Source: Candidatus Krumholzibacteriota bacterium (GTDB taxonomy: Bacteria; Krumholzibacteriota; Krumholzibacteriia; LZORAL124-64-63). Taken from it: a stretch of DNA of 25,289 bases. The notes under the pieces were generated by a model. That model searched no databases and was not told where the DNA came from. It was given only the letters and a program-made list of their open reading frames with translations. The stretch lies in assembly GCA_039714075.1 (NCBI GenBank), contig JBDLKA010000048.1, forward strand, positions 1-25,289, in the 5' to 3' direction. A program made the translations under genes and the position numbers. Position 1 is the stretch's first letter, and every line of letters begins with the position of its first letter. Shown here in pieces: positions 167-9,067 of this stretch.

Positions 167-2116
167 CTACCTCCTGTGGGAGGTGCCGCCGCCGCGGCTG
201 CCGCCCTTGCTGGATCCGCCGCCGCTGCTGCGGCTACCGCCACTGCGGCCGCCCGAACTGCGACTGCCGCCACTGCTGCTGCCGGAACTGCGGCTGCCAC
301 CGGAGTTCGAATTCGACTTGTTACCCACCGAGCCGGAGCTGCGAGTGGTGTTCCCCTTGCTTCGGGAAGATCCCGACTTGGGCTTCACCTTGCTGCCCCG
401 CTCCTTGGTGCCACTGGATTTCTTGCTGCGGGAATCGGGTTTCACTCTGCTTGACGACCCCGAACGAGTTCCCTGGGTCGAACGGCTGGGGCGATTGCTG
501 CCCGGCCGTACCTGGCGCGTGCGGTCGTTACGGTCACTGGACTGGCCGCTGCGGCCGGAATTCCAGACCCGGGTGCCCCTTTTCCGCGGTTCGACCGGTT
601 TGATGGTCCTCTGCGTCGACCTTTGGCCGGTTTGGTTCCCGGCCTTGCGGTCCTGGACCGACCCGCCGGTGCGGCTCGTCCCGGAACCGCGCACGGTGGT
701 GGAGCTCCCGGAGCCCCGGCTCACCGGAACCAGGCCCGACCGGATGCCGCCCCCGCCGGCCCGGTGCCGGAAATCGGGTTCGGTCTGCCGGCCACCAGTG
801 CGACCATTGACACCACTGTTGGTACGTGAGCGGGAGGTGGTGCTGCCGCCATCCCTGATGCGCAGGCCCGCATTGCCCCGGGTCCGTACGCCTTCATCAA
901 ATCGGGGCCGTCCGCGGGGAGAGACCTTGGTATCCGCACCGCCACTGCGCCGGGCGCCGGTGGCGGCCAGGTTTCCGGAGCGGCCCCTGAGACCGTCGAG
1001 ATCCGACATTCTGGTTCGATTGCTCATGGCATCCCGCTGGCGGGAGTCGGGTGTATCGGAGTTGACCATCCGGCTGACCGATGCATATTCCCTGGTCTTG
1101 GTCACCGCGCCGCCCCGGCCACCCTGGGTAAGGGGCTTGTAGCGGCGATTCCCGTGGCTGCCATTGTCGTAATAGGTGTAGCAGTTGCCGGCGTAATAGG
1201 GTGAATAGCCCCAGGAATAGCAGGTCCGTCCGTACCAGCCGTAACCGTAATAGGGAGCGCAGGTATAGGAAGGCCAGTACCAGAAGTTGATCCAGGGCCT
1301 CCAGGTCCACGGATCCACGTAGACGTAGACCGGATTGGCGTAGACGGGGTAGTAACCGTAATCGGTATACCAGGAGTTGACCCAGCCGTAATCGTATTTG
1401 ATTTCGAGGGTGCACGTATCCCGGTAGGGCTGGTAGGCCACCTCATCCTCGAAGTGGCACTGGTTGCACAGATAACGAGGATGCTCGACCTGGCGGTGCA
1501 CGTAATAGCTGGTGTAGTTGGTCACCACGTATTCTTCCGAGTTTTCCAGACCCGTAACCGCGAAGTTCACCTCGTTCATGGCCAGGAAGGGATCCCCGGC
1601 AACCTGGAAATGGAATTTGTCCACATTCTGTTCGTGGTGGAAATCGATTTCCAGATCCCTCAGGTCGAAGGGATATTTCGAGACGACCGCCTCGACGAAC
1701 CCCTCCCCTTCGTTGTTCGAGGTGCGCAGCTGGCGGGCTCCCGCCACCGGCAACAGGTATTCGTGGCCGCCGAAGACAAAGCCGTCATCCAGCCGGCTGC
1801 GGGGCCAAAGCACCGTGACCAGCCCATCGGCGTCGATGCGGTAGACCACGGCGTAGGCATCCTCGTTGGTCTGGAAACCGGCGCCCATTTCCTCGCCGCG
1901 CTGATAGATCTCGTCTTCCGCGCGATCCAGCCAGACGCCGACCCGCAGGTCCACCTTGCCGTAGTCGAAATCGCCGCTTTCGTTGTTCTGGGCCAGGACC
2001 GCGGTGTTCAGGCCGAAAACCAGGGCCAAGCCGAACAGGACGGCCGCCGAAAGGATATTCCACCTCGAGGGAAACCCTCGCAGTTCGTCCTTGGTATGGT
2101 TGTTTATCGCTTTCAT
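167..2116 (-). CDS. Exported DUF4384-like domain protein with CxxCH motif, Tyr/Trp-rich segment and long Arg/Ser/Gly disordered tail
   Basis: ORF 167..2155; ATG at 2116 has AGGAG at 2130-2126. Signal-peptide-like N-terminus ending AVLA-Q. The segment VWLDR..YQRGE...FQTNEDAYAVVYRIDADGLVTVLWP resembles DUF4384. CNQCH lies at 1468-1454. GGSRSSG-type repeats at the C-terminus. Confidence 0.8.
   Translation of the reverse strand: MKAINNHTKDELRGFPSRWNILSAAVLFGLALVFGLNTAVLAQNNESGDFDYGKVDLRVGVWLDRAEDEIYQRGEEMGAGFQTNEDAYAVVYRIDADGLVTVLWPRSRLDDGFVFGGHEYLLPVAGARQLRTSNNEGEGFVEAVVSKYPFDLRDLEIDFHHEQNVDKFHFQVAGDPFLAMNEVNFAVTGLENSEEYVVTNYTSYYVHRQVEHPRYLCNQCHFEDEVAYQPYRDTCTLEIKYDYGWVNSWYTDYGYYPVYANPVYVYVDPWTWRPWINFWYWPSYTCAPYYGYGWYGRTCYSWGYSPYYAGNCYTYYDNGSHGNRRYKPLTQGGRGGAVTKTREYASVSRMVNSDTPDSRQRDAMSNRTRMSDLDGLRGRSGNLAATGARRSGGADTKVSPRGRPRFDEGVRTRGNAGLRIRDGGSTTSRSRTNSGVNGRTGGRQTEPDFRHRAGGGGIRSGLVPVSRGSGSSTTVRGSGTSRTGGSVQDRKAGNQTGQRSTQRTIKPVEPRKRGTRVWNSGRSGQSSDRNDRTRQVRPGSNRPSRSTQGTRSGSSSRVKPDSRSKKSSGTKERGSKVKPKSGSSRSKGNTTRSSGSVGNKSNSNSGGSRSSGSSSGGSRSSGGRSGGSRSSGGGSSKGGSRGGGTSHRR
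183..330 (-). repeat. Degenerate coding repeats (GGSRSSG/GGSS) at the C-terminus of the DUF4384-like protein
   Basis: Recurrent ctgcggctgccgcc / ccgccactgc units on the + strand translate as SGGSRSSGSSSGGSRSSGGRSGGSRSSGGG on the minus strand. Confidence 0.7.
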
Positions 2117-2151
2117 GGTTTCACGCTCCTTTTTTCCAGTCCGTCGGCCGA

Positions 2152-3168
2152 TCAAAAGCTGACGATCTGCGGCTTGGCCGGGCCTGTCTCCAGATCCTCG
2201 GGGGCCTTGAGTTCGGGCAACCCGGGAATGGTCTGGTACGCCCAGATGATGTCAACGGTATCCTGATAGGTGCCGGTGACCCCGAATTTCGCGTAATGCA
2301 GTGCCTGACCCCGGATTTCCACCACGTAGATATGCCCGGCGACCAGTTCGATTTTACCGGTCTGGGAATAGCCGTCGGCCGGCGCCCAGGAAACACCCTC
2401 GAAAATGAGGGACCCGCCGCTGGTGAACACGCCGAAATCCTGCAGGACGACTCGCGAGGGGTTGGCATCCACGTAGGGAACCCCGTTTTCAAAGTATATG
2501 ACAAAGTCGGCAGGATCGACCGTCGGGTCGACCCGACCGGCATTGATATTACCCTGGTTGGCGGCCGCCTTCGCGAAATCGAAACCGGACTTGTTGGCCT
2601 GGGCGCCATTACCGTCAAAGAGTTCCACCGCGATATAGTTTCCGTTCACATAGGGACTCATCGGCAGCGGGGCGTCGAGAACGAGCTCGAAGCTGAGGGC
2701 GCTCTCTTTGCCCGCCGCGTTGACGGCCGCGACCGCGTATTCATACCGGAAGCCGTTTTCCACTTCGATGTCGTCGAACCAGTGCAGCCCGGTGTAGTCG
2801 TCATAGTTCTCGTCCCAGGCCACTTCACCGATATAGTAGAACTCGCGGTTGGGATCATTCTGATCCCCCTCTTCGAAGAAACGGCTGTAGATCACGTATT
2901 TTTCCACGTTGGGACTGTAGGTGCCGTCGTAGGGGGCATAGGAGATGTCGTACCACTGGACAATGACGAGATTGTCACCGCTGATGGTGTGGACACCCGT
3001 GGGAACGACCGGAGGCGGCAGTTCGCCAATGGGGGGTTCCACGCAGTTGAGGCAATCCTCATCCGACTCGCAACCGGCCAACAAGGCAACCAGGGCAATC
3101 AAGACGGCCGCCATAACGGCTGACTTCAACCAGGTGCTTCCTGTGGTATTTTCCTTGGCCCGCTTCAT
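2152..3168 (-). CDS. Lipoprotein with FN3-like N-terminal domain and beta-rich C-terminal domain
   Basis: GGAGG SD at 3180-3176. Hydrophobic stretch with lipobox LAGC. FN3-like pattern P..PTGV....GDN.V.V.W ... YEYAVAAVN..G.ES.LS. Acidic composition. Confidence 0.8.
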   Translation of the reverse strand: MKRAKENTTGSTWLKSAVMAAVLIALVALLAGCESDEDCLNCVEPPIGELPPPVVPTGVHTISGDNLVIVQWYDISYAPYDGTYSPNVEKYVIYSRFFEEGDQNDPNREFYYIGEVAWDENYDDYTGLHWFDDIEVENGFRYEYAVAAVNAAGKESALSFELVLDAPLPMSPYVNGNYIAVELFDGNGAQANKSGFDFAKAAANQGNINAGRVDPTVDPADFVIYFENGVPYVDANPSRVVLQDFGVFTSGGSLIFEGVSWAPADGYSQTGKIELVAGHIYVVEIRGQALHYAKFGVTGTYQDTVDIIWAYQTIPGLPELKAPEDLETGPAKPQIVSF

Positions 3169-3214
3169 GTTACGACCTCCAGGTCATCGGTTCAGTATTC
3201 CTGCCCACACATAC

Positions 3215-3229
3215 GCACGGTCCGTGCCA
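3215..3229 (-). promoter_or_regulatory. Sigma-54 (-24/-12) promoter for the lipoprotein/DUF4384 operon
   Basis: Minus strand reads TGGCACGGACCGTGC: GG-N10-GC with the full TGGCACG -24 element. Predicted start near 3203, about 35 nt before the ATG at 3168. Confidence 0.75.
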
Positions 3230-3480
3230 CTTGGTTCGGACCCTGGCACGGGAAAATGCCGAAAGCGGAAATAAGGTATAATAGCCGGCCCGGAGGAGGC
3301 CATCAACTCGTTAAACTGTTATCCGGCAGGACAATAAAGCACCACCGGTTTGGCTGGTAAGGTGAAAGTATCCCCTGGCCTTACCCATCACCTTTTCCCG
3401 GTTATTGAATTCCGGTGTTCATGTTTGTGCGATTTGAAGGACAGATTACCCAAAAAGGGACGAGGAGGAAGGTGGCAGGC

Positions 3481-3553
3481 AAAAAAAAAGAGCCCCGCCT
3501 TGCGGCATCCCGATCTTGAATCTCGCCATTTCAAGATCAGGCGGGCTCTTTTT
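3481..3553 (-). terminator. Intrinsic terminator built as a three-way junction (3' end of the candidate ncRNA)
   Basis: Minus strand: AAAAAGAGCCC ... GGGCTC followed by T9, enclosing a CCTGATCTTGAA/TTCAAGATCGGG stem and a GCC-GCAA-GGC hairpin. T5 on the + side means it could be bidirectional. Confidence 0.75.
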
Positions 3554-3801
3554 CCGGGACCTGCCGGCCAGGTCCAGATTCTTTCAGTCATTCGTGTTTC
3601 GGGAGAAAAGGATTCCGGTTCTCTCTTGCCGACGAATTTGATTGATCAGACCCCACCTCGTCACAACCGATCCGCCGACCCTTCTTGTTGAGAACTCCTT
3701 TTTGCCGGTAAGCATTAAGGAAAGAACCTCAACTCTCCCGAAAACACGAATTTCAAACAACATTCAATCTCCGAAGAGGATCCCTGTAACTCACCCCTTC
3801 A
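3481..3801 (-). ncRNA. Candidate sigma-54-dependent structured non-coding RNA (~320 nt), family not recognised
   Basis: Bounded by a sigma-54 promoter (3827-3813) and a U9 terminator. Contains a cUUCGg hairpin (3778-3769), a 17-bp closing stem (3751-3734 with 3606-3590), nested inner stems, a 7-bp hairpin (3575-3557) and a GCAA tetraloop. Most non-Watson-Crick positions are G-U on the minus strand. Confidence 0.6.
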
Positions 3802-3812
3802 CCCCCTGTACA

Positions 3813-3827
3813 GCAGGACCCGTACCA
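3813..3827 (-). promoter_or_regulatory. Sigma-54 (-24/-12) promoter
   Basis: Minus strand reads (T)TGGTACGGGTCCTGC(T): GG-N10-GC. An AT-rich tract lies upstream (about 3830-3960), as is typical of bendable sigma-54 spacer regions. Confidence 0.65.
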
Positions 3828-3906: not shown

Positions 3907-3922
3907 CAATCACAGCTGATTG
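3907..3922. promoter_or_regulatory. Candidate upstream activator sequence (palindrome CAATCA-N4-TGATTG)
   Basis: Perfect 6-bp inverted repeat about 110 bp upstream of the predicted sigma-54 start at ~3801, a usual enhancer distance. Confidence 0.35.
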
Positions 3923-3987
3923 TAAACAGTTTTTATAGCTTTCGGGCGCTGAAACATAAGTGGCCTGGTTGGAACAAGTTAAGATAT

Positions 3988-4014
3988 AAAAAAAAAGAAT
4001 GCCCAAACGGGCAC
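3988..4014 (-). terminator. Intrinsic terminator of the TPR sigma-54 activator gene
   Basis: Minus strand: GTGCCC-GTTT-GGGCAT then TCTTTTTTTTT, about 25 nt after the stop at 4040. Confidence 0.65.
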
Positions 4015-4039
4015 AAAGAGGACAAGTTAACAGGGAGGG

Positions 4040-7000
4040 CTACTCTTTCCCCAAACCGTAATGGCGGATCTTCTTGAGAAGGTTGGGATAGCTGATCTTG
4101 AGCGACCGCGAGGCCTGTGATTTGTTGCCCCCGGACAGTTTCAGGGCCCGGCGGATTTCCCGGCACTCGATTCCCGCCAGGGTATCCCGCAGGGGAATGA
4201 CTTCTTCCCCGGGAGCTTCATGGTCGACCCCGCCGGAAATTTCGGCAGGAAGATGCTCGGGTCGCAGGACCGAGTCGCCCTGGGCCAGCACGATGGCTCG
4301 GCGCAGGGCCTTTTCGAGTTCCCGCACGTTTCCGGGCCAGGAATGATTGATCAACATGTCGAGGAACACCCGGTCCAGGTCTGAAGGGGCAGCCTCCATC
4401 TCCTGGCTGAACCGGTCGACGAAGTGGTTGGTCAAAAGCTCGATGTCGTCAGCCCGCTCGCGCAAGGGAGGAATCACCAGGGGGAAATCGAGCAGCCGGT
4501 AGTAGAGATCCTCGAGGAAGCGGCCCTCCTGGGCCATCTGGTGCAGATCCGATTTCGAGGCGCAGACGATCCGGACATCCACCCGCAATTCCCGATTGGA
4601 CCCGACCGGGCGCACCACTTTGGTATCCAGGAAATGGAGCAGTTTGCCCTGCATGCTGAAGGGCATCTTGCCGATCTCGTCCAGGAAGACCGTTCCGCCT
4701 TCCGCTTCCACCAGCAGCCCCTGCTTGTCATTGTGGGCCCCGGTGAAACTGCCCCGCTTGTGGCCGAACAATTCACTTTCCAGCAACGATTCTGGAATGG
4801 CGGCACAATTGATGGTCAGGAAACGGCGATCGGCCCGTTTGCTCAGGGCATGGATGGAATAGGCAAGCAGTCCCTTGCCGGTCCCCGTCTCCCCGTTCAA
4901 CAGGACGGTCAAATCGCTGGGCGCCACCTTCCGGGCCAGCCCCAGCATCTCGAGCATCTTCACGTTCTGCGTGATGATGTTCTCGAAACTTTCGATCTTT
5001 TCGAAAACCCCGAGTTCTGCGGCCTGGGACCCGCCCCGCCCCTTCTCGTACAGGAACAGTGCCAGGAATCCCATGTAGGTGGCCAGAAAGTCCAGGGAAG
5101 CCCTGTCGAAACCGGGTGCGGCCTCACTCCGGGAGGATTTCCCCAGGAAAAGAAGACCGAACTGACGCCCGTGAAGGGCAATGGGCATGAACACGCAACT
5201 GGCAGCGACCGTGGCCAGGGCAGGCACCGCCTGGGTAAGCGGGTCCCCCTCATCCAGTTTGGAAAACAGCGAGGTACCCGACCGGTGACCTTCGGCCAAT
5301 TCCCGGTCGAACCAATGGGTCAACTGCTGGCCCAGGTTTTCGGTCAGGCCGTGGCGGGCCGTGATCCGCAATCCGTCCCCGGCACCGGTGTCGTCGACCA
5401 TGGCGATAAAACCGGAATCGGCCTGGACCCTTTCCATGCCCGCACCCAGGACCGAGCCCAGGTTGCGGGGCACCGAAGCGTCCCCCTTGGCGAACAGGCC
5501 GGGCAGGCAGGAGATGGCCTGCAGATGACTTTCTGTACTCTGGACACCGCCCAGCAGCCCTCCCTCGATCCGATCCCGCAACTCGACCACCATGGGAGCC
5601 AATTCGACGTCGTCGAAGCCGGCCGCGTGCCTTTCCAGTTCAAAAACGGTGAGCAGGGCATCATCGAACTGGCCCAGCCTGATCTGGACTTCGGCCAGGC
5701 GCTCCAGGATGTCGCACAACATCCGGTCGCTGACCGCGGAAGCCCCGTTTTCCTGGGCGTCCATCAGGAAGCGCCGCAGCAGAAGCAGTTCGGCCTCGCC
5801 GGCGGTATCAAGGCGATGGTCGGTGAAATCGAGGATCGTCCGGCACCAGTGGTGGGTCAGTTTCTGTTCACCGAAGGTGGCGATGGCCTGGCGGAAATGG
5901 TAGTCCGCCTGTTTCTGGTCCGCCTGGCCGGAATAGGCCTTGCCCATGGTGGCGTGACAGAAACCGATTTCGTAGTTTTCGCCGCAATTCTCACAAACGG
6001 CCAGGGCGGCCTGGCTGACGGCCACCGCTTTTTCCAGGCGGCCGGCCATCAAATGGGCTTCACCCATGCGCCGCTGCAACTCGCCTTCGAGATCGTTCCC
6101 CGCGGCGATGGTGCGTGATTTTTCCAGACCCAGCTGGTAGTTGAAGCGGGCCTTTTCGTGCTCGCCCCGGGCCAGCAGGATATCGCCCAGGTACTCGTCG
6201 GCAATGGTGGACTCACGCAGGAAACGGTTCTGATCGGCGAAGGCCTTGCCCTCGAGGATCAATTCCTCGGACCGGGCCAGGCGACCGGACAGGGTCTCGA
6301 GGCGCCCCATGGCCAGATAAAGACGGGTCTGCCGCATCCTGTCCCCGAGGCTGACGGACAACCGCAGACCTTTTTCCAGCAGGGACCGGGATTCACCCAG
6401 GCGGTCCATCTTCTGCAGGATGATGCCTTGATTGAGATAGAACCCGGGCAACAGATGGCTGGCGCCGATGTTGTGGGCCAGTTCGACCGCTTTTTCCATC
6501 AGGGATGTGGCGCGGTCCCAGCGGCAGCGGATCTTCTGCAGGACCGCCAGGTTGTTCAACAGGTTGGCCACACCCAGATCGTGTCCGATACGACGGAAGG
6601 TGGACAACCCGTCGTTGAAGAATTCCTCGGCTTTTTCCAGGCGCCCGAGCCTACTGTAACAGATCCCCATCCCCACCTGGAGAACGGCGACATCCGAATG
6701 TTCATCCGTCAGGGCCAGGACCGAAAAAGCGCGTTTCGCCAGATTCAGGGAGTCATGGAGCCGACCGCGCTCGCGCAGAGCGATGGCGCTACGTGCCTGG
6801 AAAATGGCCCGGTGGACGGCGATCTCGTCTGGGTCCGAAACGACCGAGGTCCGGGCGATGAGATCCTCCGCCCGGTCGAGAAGCAGATCAACCTGGTCGA
6901 AGTTGCCCAAAAGGATGTTGGAATCGACTGCCTTGCGCAGGACCCGCACGGCCTGGTCCCGGTCCATCCGGGAAAGAACACCTTCAGCGAAGAGTTGGCG

Positions 7001-7150
7001 GTAATAATCCAGGGCCGTGGAATAGGCGGAGGCATGATAGTGAAGGTCGCCGATTTCCTCCAAGCGGGCCCACTCCGTCCCCTGCCGGGAACGGGCGCTA
7101 TCCGGCTGGCCCGAATTGGACTGGCTTTGGTCTTTGAAATTATCTCTCAT
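4040..7150 (-). CDS. Sigma-54 enhancer-binding protein with long N-terminal TPR array, GAF-like domain, AAA+ domain and Fis-type HTH
   Basis: Walker A GETGTGKG, ESELFGH, GSFTGA, Walker [15 protein letters not shown] and HTH GNKSQASRSLKISYPNL. TPR-like helices such as LGRLEKAEEFFNDGL, ANLLNNLAVL and YLNQGII. GAF-like CVFMPIALHGRQFGLLFLG. No receiver domain. Start is ATG 7150 or TTG 7153, after GAGGGA. Confidence 0.92.
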   Translation of the reverse strand: MRDNFKDQSQSNSGQPDSARSRQGTEWARLEEIGDLHYHASAYSTALDYYRQLFAEGVLSRMDRDQAVRVLRKAVDSNILLGNFDQVDLLLDRAEDLIARTSVVSDPDEIAVHRAIFQARSAIALRERGRLHDSLNLAKRAFSVLALTDEHSDVAVLQVGMGICYSRLGRLEKAEEFFNDGLSTFRRIGHDLGVANLLNNLAVLQKIRCRWDRATSLMEKAVELAHNIGASHLLPGFYLNQGIILQKMDRLGESRSLLEKGLRLSVSLGDRMRQTRLYLAMGRLETLSGRLARSEELILEGKAFADQNRFLRESTIADEYLGDILLARGEHEKARFNYQLGLEKSRTIAAGNDLEGELQRRMGEAHLMAGRLEKAVAVSQAALAVCENCGENYEIGFCHATMGKAYSGQADQKQADYHFRQAIATFGEQKLTHHWCRTILDFTDHRLDTAGEAELLLLRRFLMDAQENGASAVSDRMLCDILERLAEVQIRLGQFDDALLTVFELERHAAGFDDVELAPMVVELRDRIEGGLLGGVQSTESHLQAISCLPGLFAKGDASVPRNLGSVLGAGMERVQADSGFIAMVDDTGAGDGLRITARHGLTENLGQQLTHWFDRELAEGHRSGTSLFSKLDEGDPLTQAVPALATVAASCVFMPIALHGRQFGLLFLGKSSRSEAAPGFDRASLDFLATYMGFLALFLYEKGRGGSQAAELGVFEKIESFENIITQNVKMLEMLGLARKVAPSDLTVLLNGETGTGKGLLAYSIHALSKRADRRFLTINCAAIPESLLESELFGHKRGSFTGAHNDKQGLLVEAEGGTVFLDEIGKMPFSMQGKLLHFLDTKVVRPVGSNRELRVDVRIVCASKSDLHQMAQEGRFLEDLYYRLLDFPLVIPPLRERADDIELLTNHFVDRFSQEMEAAPSDLDRVFLDMLINHSWPGNVRELEKALRRAIVLAQGDSVLRPEHLPAEISGGVDHEAPGEEVIPLRDTLAGIECREIRRALKLSGGNKSQASRSLKISYPNLLKKIRHYGLGKE

Positions 7151-7232
7151 CAACCGTATCCCTCGGCGAGGAAGTGGACCGGCGACAATTTATTTTTTGT
7201 CCCGGCTTCAGGACCGCCCCTCACGGGCAGTC

Positions 7233-7565
7233 CTAAAGAGCCAGCTGGATCAGTGAGTTCAGGAGGAGCCAGAGCTCATCCAGGACCGAATCGTCCCAAT
7301 CACCGCATCCTTCTAGGGAACCCAAACCGTCAGGTTGATCCTTAGCCCCTAAACCATCTCCCATTTCACCAGGATCACCATTCTGGCCGTCGTCGGAGGC
7401 CCCATTGACTACGACGACAAGATCATTTTGATCATTTTGGGAGGAGGAAGCTGAGGAATCCTGCTTCTCCGGAATTCCACCGGCAGCAGCAACAGAAGAA
7501 AGCGAAGTGATGGACAAAAACGACCACATCACCAGAAGAACCAGAACCGTCAGATTCTTTTTCAT
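7233..7565 (-). CDS. Small (110 aa) secreted acidic protein, candidate propeptide
   Basis: AAGGAG SD before ATG 7565. MKK n-region, hydrophobic h-region and VAAA-G cleavage-like site. Asp/Gly/Ser-rich mature part (GDPGEMGDG) and amphipathic C-terminal helix VLDELWLLLNSLIQLAL. Confidence 0.75.
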   Translation of the reverse strand: MKKNLTVLVLLVMWSFLSITSLSSVAAAGGIPEKQDSSASSSQNDQNDLVVVVNGASDDGQNGDPGEMGDGLGAKDQPDGLGSLEGCGDWDDSVLDELWLLLNSLIQLAL

Positions 7566-7705
7566 GTCCTTCTCCTTCATAACAACACCCCGTCTTAAAC
7601 AAAACCACCGCGGCACTCCGGACCTGGTATCTGGAGCCGCAGAAAAATCCTAATTACTCTATTTATTTACGGATCAAAGGTTGATCCGTCAACAAGTTTC
7701 GGGAA

Positions 7706-9067
7706 TCAACCCGATTCCGGCTGGGTACGCAGCCCGTATTTGGTGATCTTCTTGTAGAGGTTGCTCCTCTGCATTCCCAAGGCTTCCGCCGTCTTGCTGA
7801 CATTGTACAGGTTTTCCTTCAGCTTGTGTTGAAGAAATGCCCCCTCGCTTGCGGATTTGAAGTCCTGGAAGTCGTTGCATTCAAAAAAAGAAGGTTCCCC
7901 GGCGACCTCATGGGAGGCACCGGGCAACAGAGGCAGGTCCGTGGGCTTTATGACCTCCTCCGGGGCCAGGATCAGCATTCTTTCCACCAGGTTACGCAAT
8001 TCCCGGACGTTGCCGGGCCAGGAGTATTCCTGCAGGATCGCCAGGGTCTCGGGGTCGAAACGGCGGGGCTTTGTTTTCAGCCGCGCGGCCAAATCGGCCA
8101 GGAACCATTCCAAGAGCAGGGCAATGTCCCCTTCCCTCTCCCGCAAGGGAGGCAAATGAATGGAAAGGACATTCAGGCGGAAGAAGAGATCCCTCCGGAA
8201 ACCGGATTCCGGCGAAGACAGATCGCGGTTCGTGGCGGCCACGATACGAACATCGACTGACTTGGTGTCTCCCCCTCCCACGCGCTGGAACTTGTTTTCT
8301 TCCACCGCCTTGAGCACCTTGGCCTGAGCCTCTTCGTTCATGTCGCCAATTTCATCGAGAAACAGGGTTCCCCCGTCAGCCAATTCGAATTTGCCGATTC
8401 TCTGCTTGTCCGCGCCGGTAAAACTGCCCTTTTCATGGCCGAAAAGTTCACTTTCAACCAGATCCCGGGGGATGGCCGCACAATTCACCTCGACCAGGGG
8501 ACGGTCCATGCGGGCGCTGGCCCGGTGAATGGCCCGGACCACGAGTTCCTTGCCCGTGCCGTTCTCGCCGGTGATCAGGACGGTCGCCTCGCTGGCGGCA
8601 ACCTTGTCTATGAAGGCCCGCACCTCGCGGATGCCCCGGCTTTCCCCCACCAGGGGGTGGGATGTGACCGCCTGATCCTGGAGAATGCGGCGGTCCGAAA
8701 GCACCTCCTGGTGATCCAGGCAATTGGTGAGCGTCACCAGCAGCCGCGACCTGTCCAGGGGCTTTTCCAGGAAATCATAGGCGCCCTTCTTGACGGCATC
8801 CACAGCGGTTTCGATGTTGCCATGGCCGGAAACGACGATCACGGGCATCCGATGCCCGTCGGCGGCCAGGCGGTCAAGAACTTCGAAACCATCCATTCCC
8901 GGCATCTTGACGTCCAGCAGAATGACGTCCGGAGCCGAGGACGCCACCACGGCCAGCCCCTCGGCCCCGGACCCGGCTTTTTTCACTTCGTAACCCTCAT
9001 AGGAGAGAATCTGTTCAAGGGTTTCGCGGATGGCGATTTCATCGTCGATGACAAGGACCGTTTTCAA
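7706..9067 (-). CDS. NtrC/NtrX-family sigma-54-dependent response regulator (REC-AAA+-HTH)
   Basis: REC motifs [18 protein letters not shown] and [60 protein letters not shown] start. Confidence 0.95.

Follow-up and report, generated by a model that had tools for sequence, protein, structure and literature searches.

A covarying sigma-54-dependent RNA gene beside an activator gene in one Krumholzibacteriota family, with a possible feedback role

The window considered here, a 25,289-nt stretch of a Candidatus Krumholzibacteriota genome, includes some 320 nt on the minus strand (3801-3481) lying between the gene for a sigma-54 activator and a cell-envelope operon. What does this interval encode, and, if it is an RNA, what might the RNA do? 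A sequence-only reading had proposed an unannotated, structured RNA of about this length, with its own promoter and terminator. Comparison with related genomes supports that proposal: the element is single-copy, lies outside Rfam, and covaries. We regard it as virtually certain that this is a real sigma-54-dependent non-coding RNA gene, consisting from 5′ to 3′ of a hairpin, a linker, a branched rod, a variable hairpin, and a three-way-junction terminator (3481..3801, minus strand).

The features flanking it are all on the same strand. Immediately upstream is a gene (4040..7153, minus strand) for a 1036-aa activator in which Pfam identifies TPR repeats, a weak GAF match, a sigma-54 interaction AAA+ domain, and a Fis-type helix-turn-helix (HTH_8). 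This is preceded by a 127-aa ORF (7233-7616, minus strand) with a signal-peptide-like start and no Pfam match, and further upstream by a receiver-domain NtrC-type activator gene (7706-9067, minus strand). Downstream is an operon (167..3168, minus strand) for a 338-aa lipoprotein, with the lipobox LLAGC and no Pfam match, and a 662-aa DUF4384 protein (167-2155, minus strand), whose C-terminal tail of about 300 residues is almost wholly R, S, G, T, and K and is probably disordered. The operon has a sigma-54 promoter of its own, TGGCACGGACCGTGCG (3214..3229, minus strand), about 45 nt before the lipoprotein ATG; with the second activator gene, the locus thus contains two activator genes and two promoters of the sigma-54 type. 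Wherever the flanking sequence is long enough, the genes stand in the order activator, RNA, lipoprotein, DUF4384 protein on a single strand. Of 68 locus rows, 66 have the activator upstream on the strand of the RNA, and the remaining two begin inside the RNA; the lipoprotein gene is downstream in 63 of the 68.

The promoter predicted for the RNA is borne out by its conservation. A near-consensus -24/-12 element, TGGTACGGGTCCTGCT (3812..3827, minus strand), can be read in the sequence beginning about 210 nt past the stop codon (4040) of the 1036-aa activator gene, with GG at 3826-3825 and GC at 3814-3813, giving a predicted transcription start near 3801/3800. Defined as a -24 GG and a -12 GC at 10-bp spacing, close to TGGCAC-N5-TTGCW, such an element is found at a fixed distance from the RNA in the window and in 63 of 64 oriented homologous loci, and the 64th retains GG-N10-GC. 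Upstream of the window's -24 element by 110 nt is an enhancer-like inverted repeat, TATAAA-N5-TTTACA (3921..3937, minus strand); repeats of the type TGTAAA-N5-TTTAYA occur at -110 and/or -174 in 52 of the 64 loci, where 0.8 would be expected from shuffled sequences. The genome encodes rpoN. The hairpin and T-run that had been read as a terminator insulating the RNA from the upstream gene are present in the window (4014-3988), and the RNA itself ends in a branched stem followed by nine U (3489-3481).

Folded as a single sequence, the ~320-nt RNA has a predicted free energy of -125.8 kcal/mol (z = -3.25), and none of 100 shuffled versions was equally stable. Covariance models were built for the rod (R2) and for the 3′ junction (R1), and all loci were realigned to them; with RNAalifold run directly on the MAFFT alignments, several helices were lost or came out in the wrong register. 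For the rod, with 65 sequences, 90.3% of cells are paired vs. 72.7% for shuffled controls, and double changes occur in 39 of 43 pairs; for the 3′ junction, with 63 distinct sequences, the corresponding figures are 92.3% vs. 80.0%, with double changes in 23 of 24 pairs. Because each alignment was fitted to its model, slid controls make the fairer comparison, and against these the covariation score is 0.551 for the rod (best control 0.193) and 0.437 for the junction (best control 0.134). The ~160-nt branched rod and the 3′ three-way-junction terminator are therefore both strongly supported by covariation, the check that had been suggested for homologous loci. The minus-strand orientation is confirmed as well, with at most 22.7 bits for the reverse strand against 138 bits forward.

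The individual parts of the fold fared unevenly. The closing helix of the rod (3751-3734 with 3606-3590), already drawn in the sequence-only reading, shows changes on both sides in 12 of 12 pairs, with 94% of cells paired. It leads into a three-way junction from which two arms branch, a short one (CCUU/AAGG) with GCUUACCGGC as its cap and a long one with the invariant loop GAGGUGGGGUC (3659-3649) at its tip, the whole rod spanning 3590..3751 (minus strand); the short arm with its cap and the apical GA-GGUGGGG-UC loop are both supported. Several inner rod helices had been mispaired. The nested helices GGUUCUUUC/GAGAGAACC and CUUACCGGC/GUCGGCAAG are replaced by other pairings that do covary, namely GUUCUC (3695-3690) with GAGAAC (3623-3618), GUCGGC (3679-3674) with GUCGGC (3633-3628), and GGUUG (3668-3664) with CAAUC (3644-3640). 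In all, three of the smaller helices of the earlier drawing do not survive. A CUC-UUCG-GAG mini-hairpin proposed near the 5′ end is not conserved; its CCUCUUC is instead the 3′ strand of the 5′ hairpin P1 (3773..3800, minus strand), which pairs GAAGGGG (3800-3794) with CCUCUUC (3779-3773) and carries the family-wide core GUURCAGGGA in its loop. P1 looks compensatory between genera by eye, but a model-based count (77.6% vs. 73.9%) gives no clear separation, and a shuffle test on enclosing pairs (61 of 64, with 47 expected) did not discriminate. A variable linker separates it from the rod. On the other side of the rod, the hairpin GGACCUG-N5-CAGGUCC (3557..3575, minus strand) is present in the window as described, but differs in sequence and length from one relative to another, and some relatives lack it. 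The terminal three-way junction with its U-run (3555-3481) is the structure in which 23 of 24 pairs show double changes; its helices (3482..3555, minus strand) include a long hairpin with GGCGAG (3527-3522) in its loop, identical in 46 of 46 aligned RNAs, and then a GCAA-capped hairpin and U9. Overall, the helices vary while the multi-helix architecture is kept, and many nucleotides in the internal loops and junctions are invariant.

There is a weak hint that the RNA is abundant and discrete. Contigs from two metatranscriptomes, of different studies, are confined to the RNA (3590-3777), with none on the flanking genes: one metatranscriptome has a contig over 3602-3762, and the other has contigs over 3590-3755 and 3638-3777, one of which runs on into the variable hairpin as it occurs in a relative. 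Such contigs carry no strand, ends, or level, and DNA carry-over is possible. They leave 3481-3589 and 3778-3801 uncovered, from which, with contigs, nothing follows. The RNA stretch is also contained in two DNA runs.

By BLASTN, the element was found in 24 of 36 genomes of the same family, and weakly in one of 24 from other families. A three-motif pattern scan covering genomes of 185,579 species returned 54 loci, 39 of which were confirmed as full-length homologues by a profile of alignment A1; the other 15 were rejected by the same profile as chance matches in unrelated taxa. Titles among the 39 include Candidatus Krumholzibacteriia/-ota (15), “uncultured Fibrobacteraceae” (nine), Gemmatimonadales (one), and Chromatiaceae (one). 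The last two (L052 and L071, the latter a 2-kb contig) look like mis-binning or mislabelling rather than true occurrences. With strict filters, a covariance model of the 3′ domain found one copy each in 54 of the 60 genomes from the same family as the window, and weak matches in three of 90 from the rest of the phylum; these three (L133, L137, L138) have no adjacent rod, and were therefore treated as chance. Of the six family genomes without a model match, five were examined (G009 was left out): in three the activator gene is cut by a contig end, and two have divergent but recognizable rod and 3′ domains at the syntenic site. Essentially all assembled genomes of this one family of Krumholzibacteriota carry the RNA.

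Within the scope of Rfam 15, the RNA belongs to no known family, as had been expected: there were no matches at gathering score in the window, and none in the corresponding loci of eight relatives. A search in E-value mode, with E up to 10, gave noise only, such as a terminator-like suhB match at 3982-4019. Rfam includes the 6S, CrcZ, Qrr, GlmY, Pxr, and CsrB/Rsm families. The absence of RNase P and tmRNA signatures noted earlier also holds, the genome's RNase P RNA and tmRNA having been found at other sites; 6S RNA and SRP RNA were likewise considered and rejected as identities, and all four RNAs were located elsewhere in the genome. The suggestion that the rod might be 6S-like did not hold up: a canonical 6S RNA is encoded on another contig (76 bits), and the rod here branches at a three-way junction, whereas 6S RNA is an unbranched rod with a central bubble. 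SRP RNA was found twice with equal scores (G000 C119:10108-10205 and C144:7238-7335), and C144 also has several tRNA-like weak tmRNA matches; the duplicate could stem from redundancy in the assembly or from a mixed bin (estimated contamination 4.3%). A search of the openly accessible literature on Krumholzibacteriota, judged by title, and on sigma-54 small RNAs yielded no description of such an RNA.

What might the RNA do? The explanation that best fits the locus overall is a sigma-54-dependent non-coding RNA acting in trans as a regulator, with feedback on its activator, to which we give about an even chance. Control of the RNA by one of the neighboring activators is in itself likely. An enhancer-binding activator at the inverted repeats approximately 110 and 174 bp upstream would open the promoter, allowing sigma-54 polymerase to start near 3801; of the two candidate activator genes present, the more likely source is the one just upstream, encoding the TPR-GAF protein. 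Transcription would stop at the three-way junction and U-run. We infer that the RNA then acts in trans through its invariant hairpin loops and without Hfq, for which no match was found in the 92%-complete genome.

A candidate target is the leader of the activator mRNA itself (7147..7186, minus strand), which has an SD-like GAGGGA, the sequence CUCGCC at 7170-7165, and a start ATG at 7150. The activator start could be located in 19 relatives, for a set of 20 leaders including the window's. CUCGCC is found at -22..-14 in all 20, directly before an SD-like RGGGA, and is complementary to the invariant GGCGAG loop of the RNA; the duplex has a mean z of -3.4, with at most 3% of shuffles as good for any one leader. 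With two divergent genomes added, the CUCGCC core is present in 21 of 22 leaders, the exception (L159) having GUCGCC while its RNA loop stays unchanged. In minimum-energy folds of 17 of the 20 leaders, at least three SD bases pair with an upstream C-rich strand and the CUCGCC core is in the hairpin loop. The outer stems of this leader hairpin differ between genera, yet are complementary by eye; its predicted energies are ordinary, with z scattered around 0. The GGCGAG loop of the 3′ domain could kiss the CUCGCC loop of this predicted hairpin, in which the ribosome-binding site would be sequestered, and so feed back on activator synthesis with either sign.

Such a contact is tentative. The 6-nt match was found after several loops and neighboring leaders had been viewed, so that a chance match would not be rare (15-30%, as a rough estimate), and since both GGCGAG and CUCGCC are invariant, no compensatory change backs the pairing. 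Resting as it does on six invariant bases picked out post hoc, loop-loop pairing with the activator leader seems to us possible, but on balance doubtful. Neither of two other loops did better than shuffles against the 20 leaders: the apical G-rich loop forms 8 bp with the leader in the window but has a mean z of -0.28, and the 5′ hairpin loop gives a z of +0.5. The exact 14-mer of the leader occurs once in the 4.06 Mb genome. A genome-wide search for the CCAC..CUCGCC leader motif gave 128 loose matches, two of them before start codons, which is within chance expectation. These two, possible further targets on minus strands, are the genes for a secreted 404-aa protein (G000 C117, near 5827) and an RtcB-like ligase (C8, near 37006), each with a CCACC..CUCGCC-like motif just ahead of its ribosome-binding site. 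In a positive-feedback version of the proposal, somewhat less probable again than the pairing itself, Shine-Dalgarno-like G-rich loops would help the RNA invade the C-rich anti-SD strand and release translation, for an Hfq-free, bistable envelope program.

With its 320 nt and its many invariant internal loops, the RNA exceeds the usual base-pairing sRNA in both size and elaborateness. The strongest of the alternatives is that it binds protein: RNA polymerase, the ribosome, or some RNA-binding protein would use it as a scaffold or be titrated by it as a decoy or sponge, and its invariant loops would be contacts for protein or rRNA instead of antisense seeds. Its size, its conserved architecture, and its invariant loops and junctions would all suit such a function. 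The loop of the 5′ hairpin, ACAGGGAU, is similar to the high-affinity consensus for CsrA, there is a csrA gene in the genome, and the apical GAGGUG resembles a Shine-Dalgarno sequence. The earlier idea of a GGA-rich protein sponge is not borne out, however: there is one conserved unpaired GGA, that of the 5′ hairpin loop, as against many in known sponges; the RNA has no repeated motif; the csrA gene is in a fliW-csrA-flgM cluster, which is the protein-antagonist type of setting; and most CsrAs of Krumholzibacteriota are reported to receive a non-functional score in a B. subtilis assay model (PMC13443453). The canonical 6S RNA encoded elsewhere likewise speaks against this reading. We put protein binding at roughly half the likelihood of the trans-acting regulator. 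As an observation apart from the RNA, csrA is flanked by fliW and by a weak FlgM-like gene (L088, G000 C1:8841-11993), so the lineage probably has a flagellar CsrA-FliW partner switch.

The same invariant nucleotides in internal loops and junctions, within a conserved multi-helix architecture, could instead belong to a new kind of RNA that senses a ligand or processes itself, its conserved core binding a metabolite or carrying out a reaction. Nothing in the RNA resembles any Rfam ribozyme or riboswitch, though; it closes with a strong terminator, leaving no gene for it to control, and its confinement to one family and one activator locus is typical of a regulatory sRNA. We consider a sensor or catalyst improbable.

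At all loci the RNA is on the same strand as the lipoprotein operon and immediately upstream of it, as would be expected of a cis-acting leader or attenuator working by terminator read-through. But the operon's own sigma-54 promoter is found in 60 of 62 loci, 165-480 nt past the end of the RNA, the terminator stem and its U/C-rich tail are conserved, and, one box excepted, the stretch separating the RNA from the operon lacks conservation. That box, GTCCCTTTTTGGGTAATCTGTCC (3439..3461, minus strand), is directly past the RNA terminator; a loose pattern for it matched in 30 of 64 loci, and it may be an enhancer for the next promoter or a bending site. Because the operon has its own sigma-54 promoter, the RNA is a separate unit and not a leader, a role we consider very unlikely; for the same reason, RNA and operon can be seen as parallel outputs of one switch. 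Least credible of all is a small-protein mRNA or a dispersed MITE/REP repeat without RNA function: ORFs of 59 and 67 aa do overlap the region, but the local ORFs have no Pfam match, the 59-aa frame has one-base indels (not divisible by three) in same-genus relatives, substitutions track helices and not codons, and there is one copy in the 4.06-Mb assembly and one per relative, which excludes a dispersed element.

It is rare for a large RNA outside any known family to covary this strongly, and the source phylum has no cultured member. The anatomy of the locus is unusually complete: three structured domains and a terminator follow a sigma-54 promoter with enhancer sites, and the neighbors are fixed. 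Reconstruction and testing in a laboratory host are therefore feasible, with no need to culture the organism. The RNA family itself matches nothing catalogued; the layout of an activator gene followed by its sigma-54-dependent non-coding RNA gene is already known from cbrB-crcZ and also from Qrr, GlmY, and Pxr. With 6S RNA it shares a long imperfect helical rod, but the rod here is branched, is flanked by further domains, and is under a conditional sigma-54 promoter. Pxr of Myxococcus and GlmY of enterobacteria have a sigma-54 promoter and a neighboring activator gene, but are much smaller, with other folds and mechanisms, and are also among the families with no Rfam match to the Krumholzibacteriota RNA. 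CrcZ is sigma-54-dependent and about 400 nt long, and its repeated A-rich motifs make it a decoy for Hfq/Crc. Like CrcZ (and CrcY) of Pseudomonas, the RNA gene described here is directly downstream of an NtrC-family activator gene; crcZ maps downstream of cbrB in all the Pseudomonas genomes analyzed (PMC5113210). Unlike CrcZ, the Krumholzibacteriota RNA has no repeated motif, no Rfam match, and a different fold, in another phylum and in a genome in which Hfq was not found.

For the candidate contact with the activator leader, close parallels are CopA-CopT, RNAI-RNAII, and OxyS-fhlA, in which complementary GC-rich hairpin loops kiss, one partner being at a ribosome-binding site. GC-rich complementary loops, one of them by a ribosome-binding site, are what is found here as well, although those contacts are experimentally proven and this one is a 6-nt prediction lacking compensatory change. 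The Qrr sRNAs of Vibrio are about 100 nt long, depend on a sigma-54 activator and on Hfq, occur in multiple copies, and pair via a linear conserved region. The proposed feedback of the RNA on the mRNA of its activator would be like that of Qrr and LuxO; Qrr sRNAs pair with the luxO mRNA of their own activator (PMC3262071). The Krumholzibacteriota RNA differs from them in being ~320 nt long and single-copy, in having no sequence or model match to them, and in that it would use a loop-loop contact. If the leader contact is real, it would be an Hfq-independent, structure-based version of Qrr-LuxO-type feedback, and would show how sigma-54 cell-envelope switches are tuned in the FCB group.
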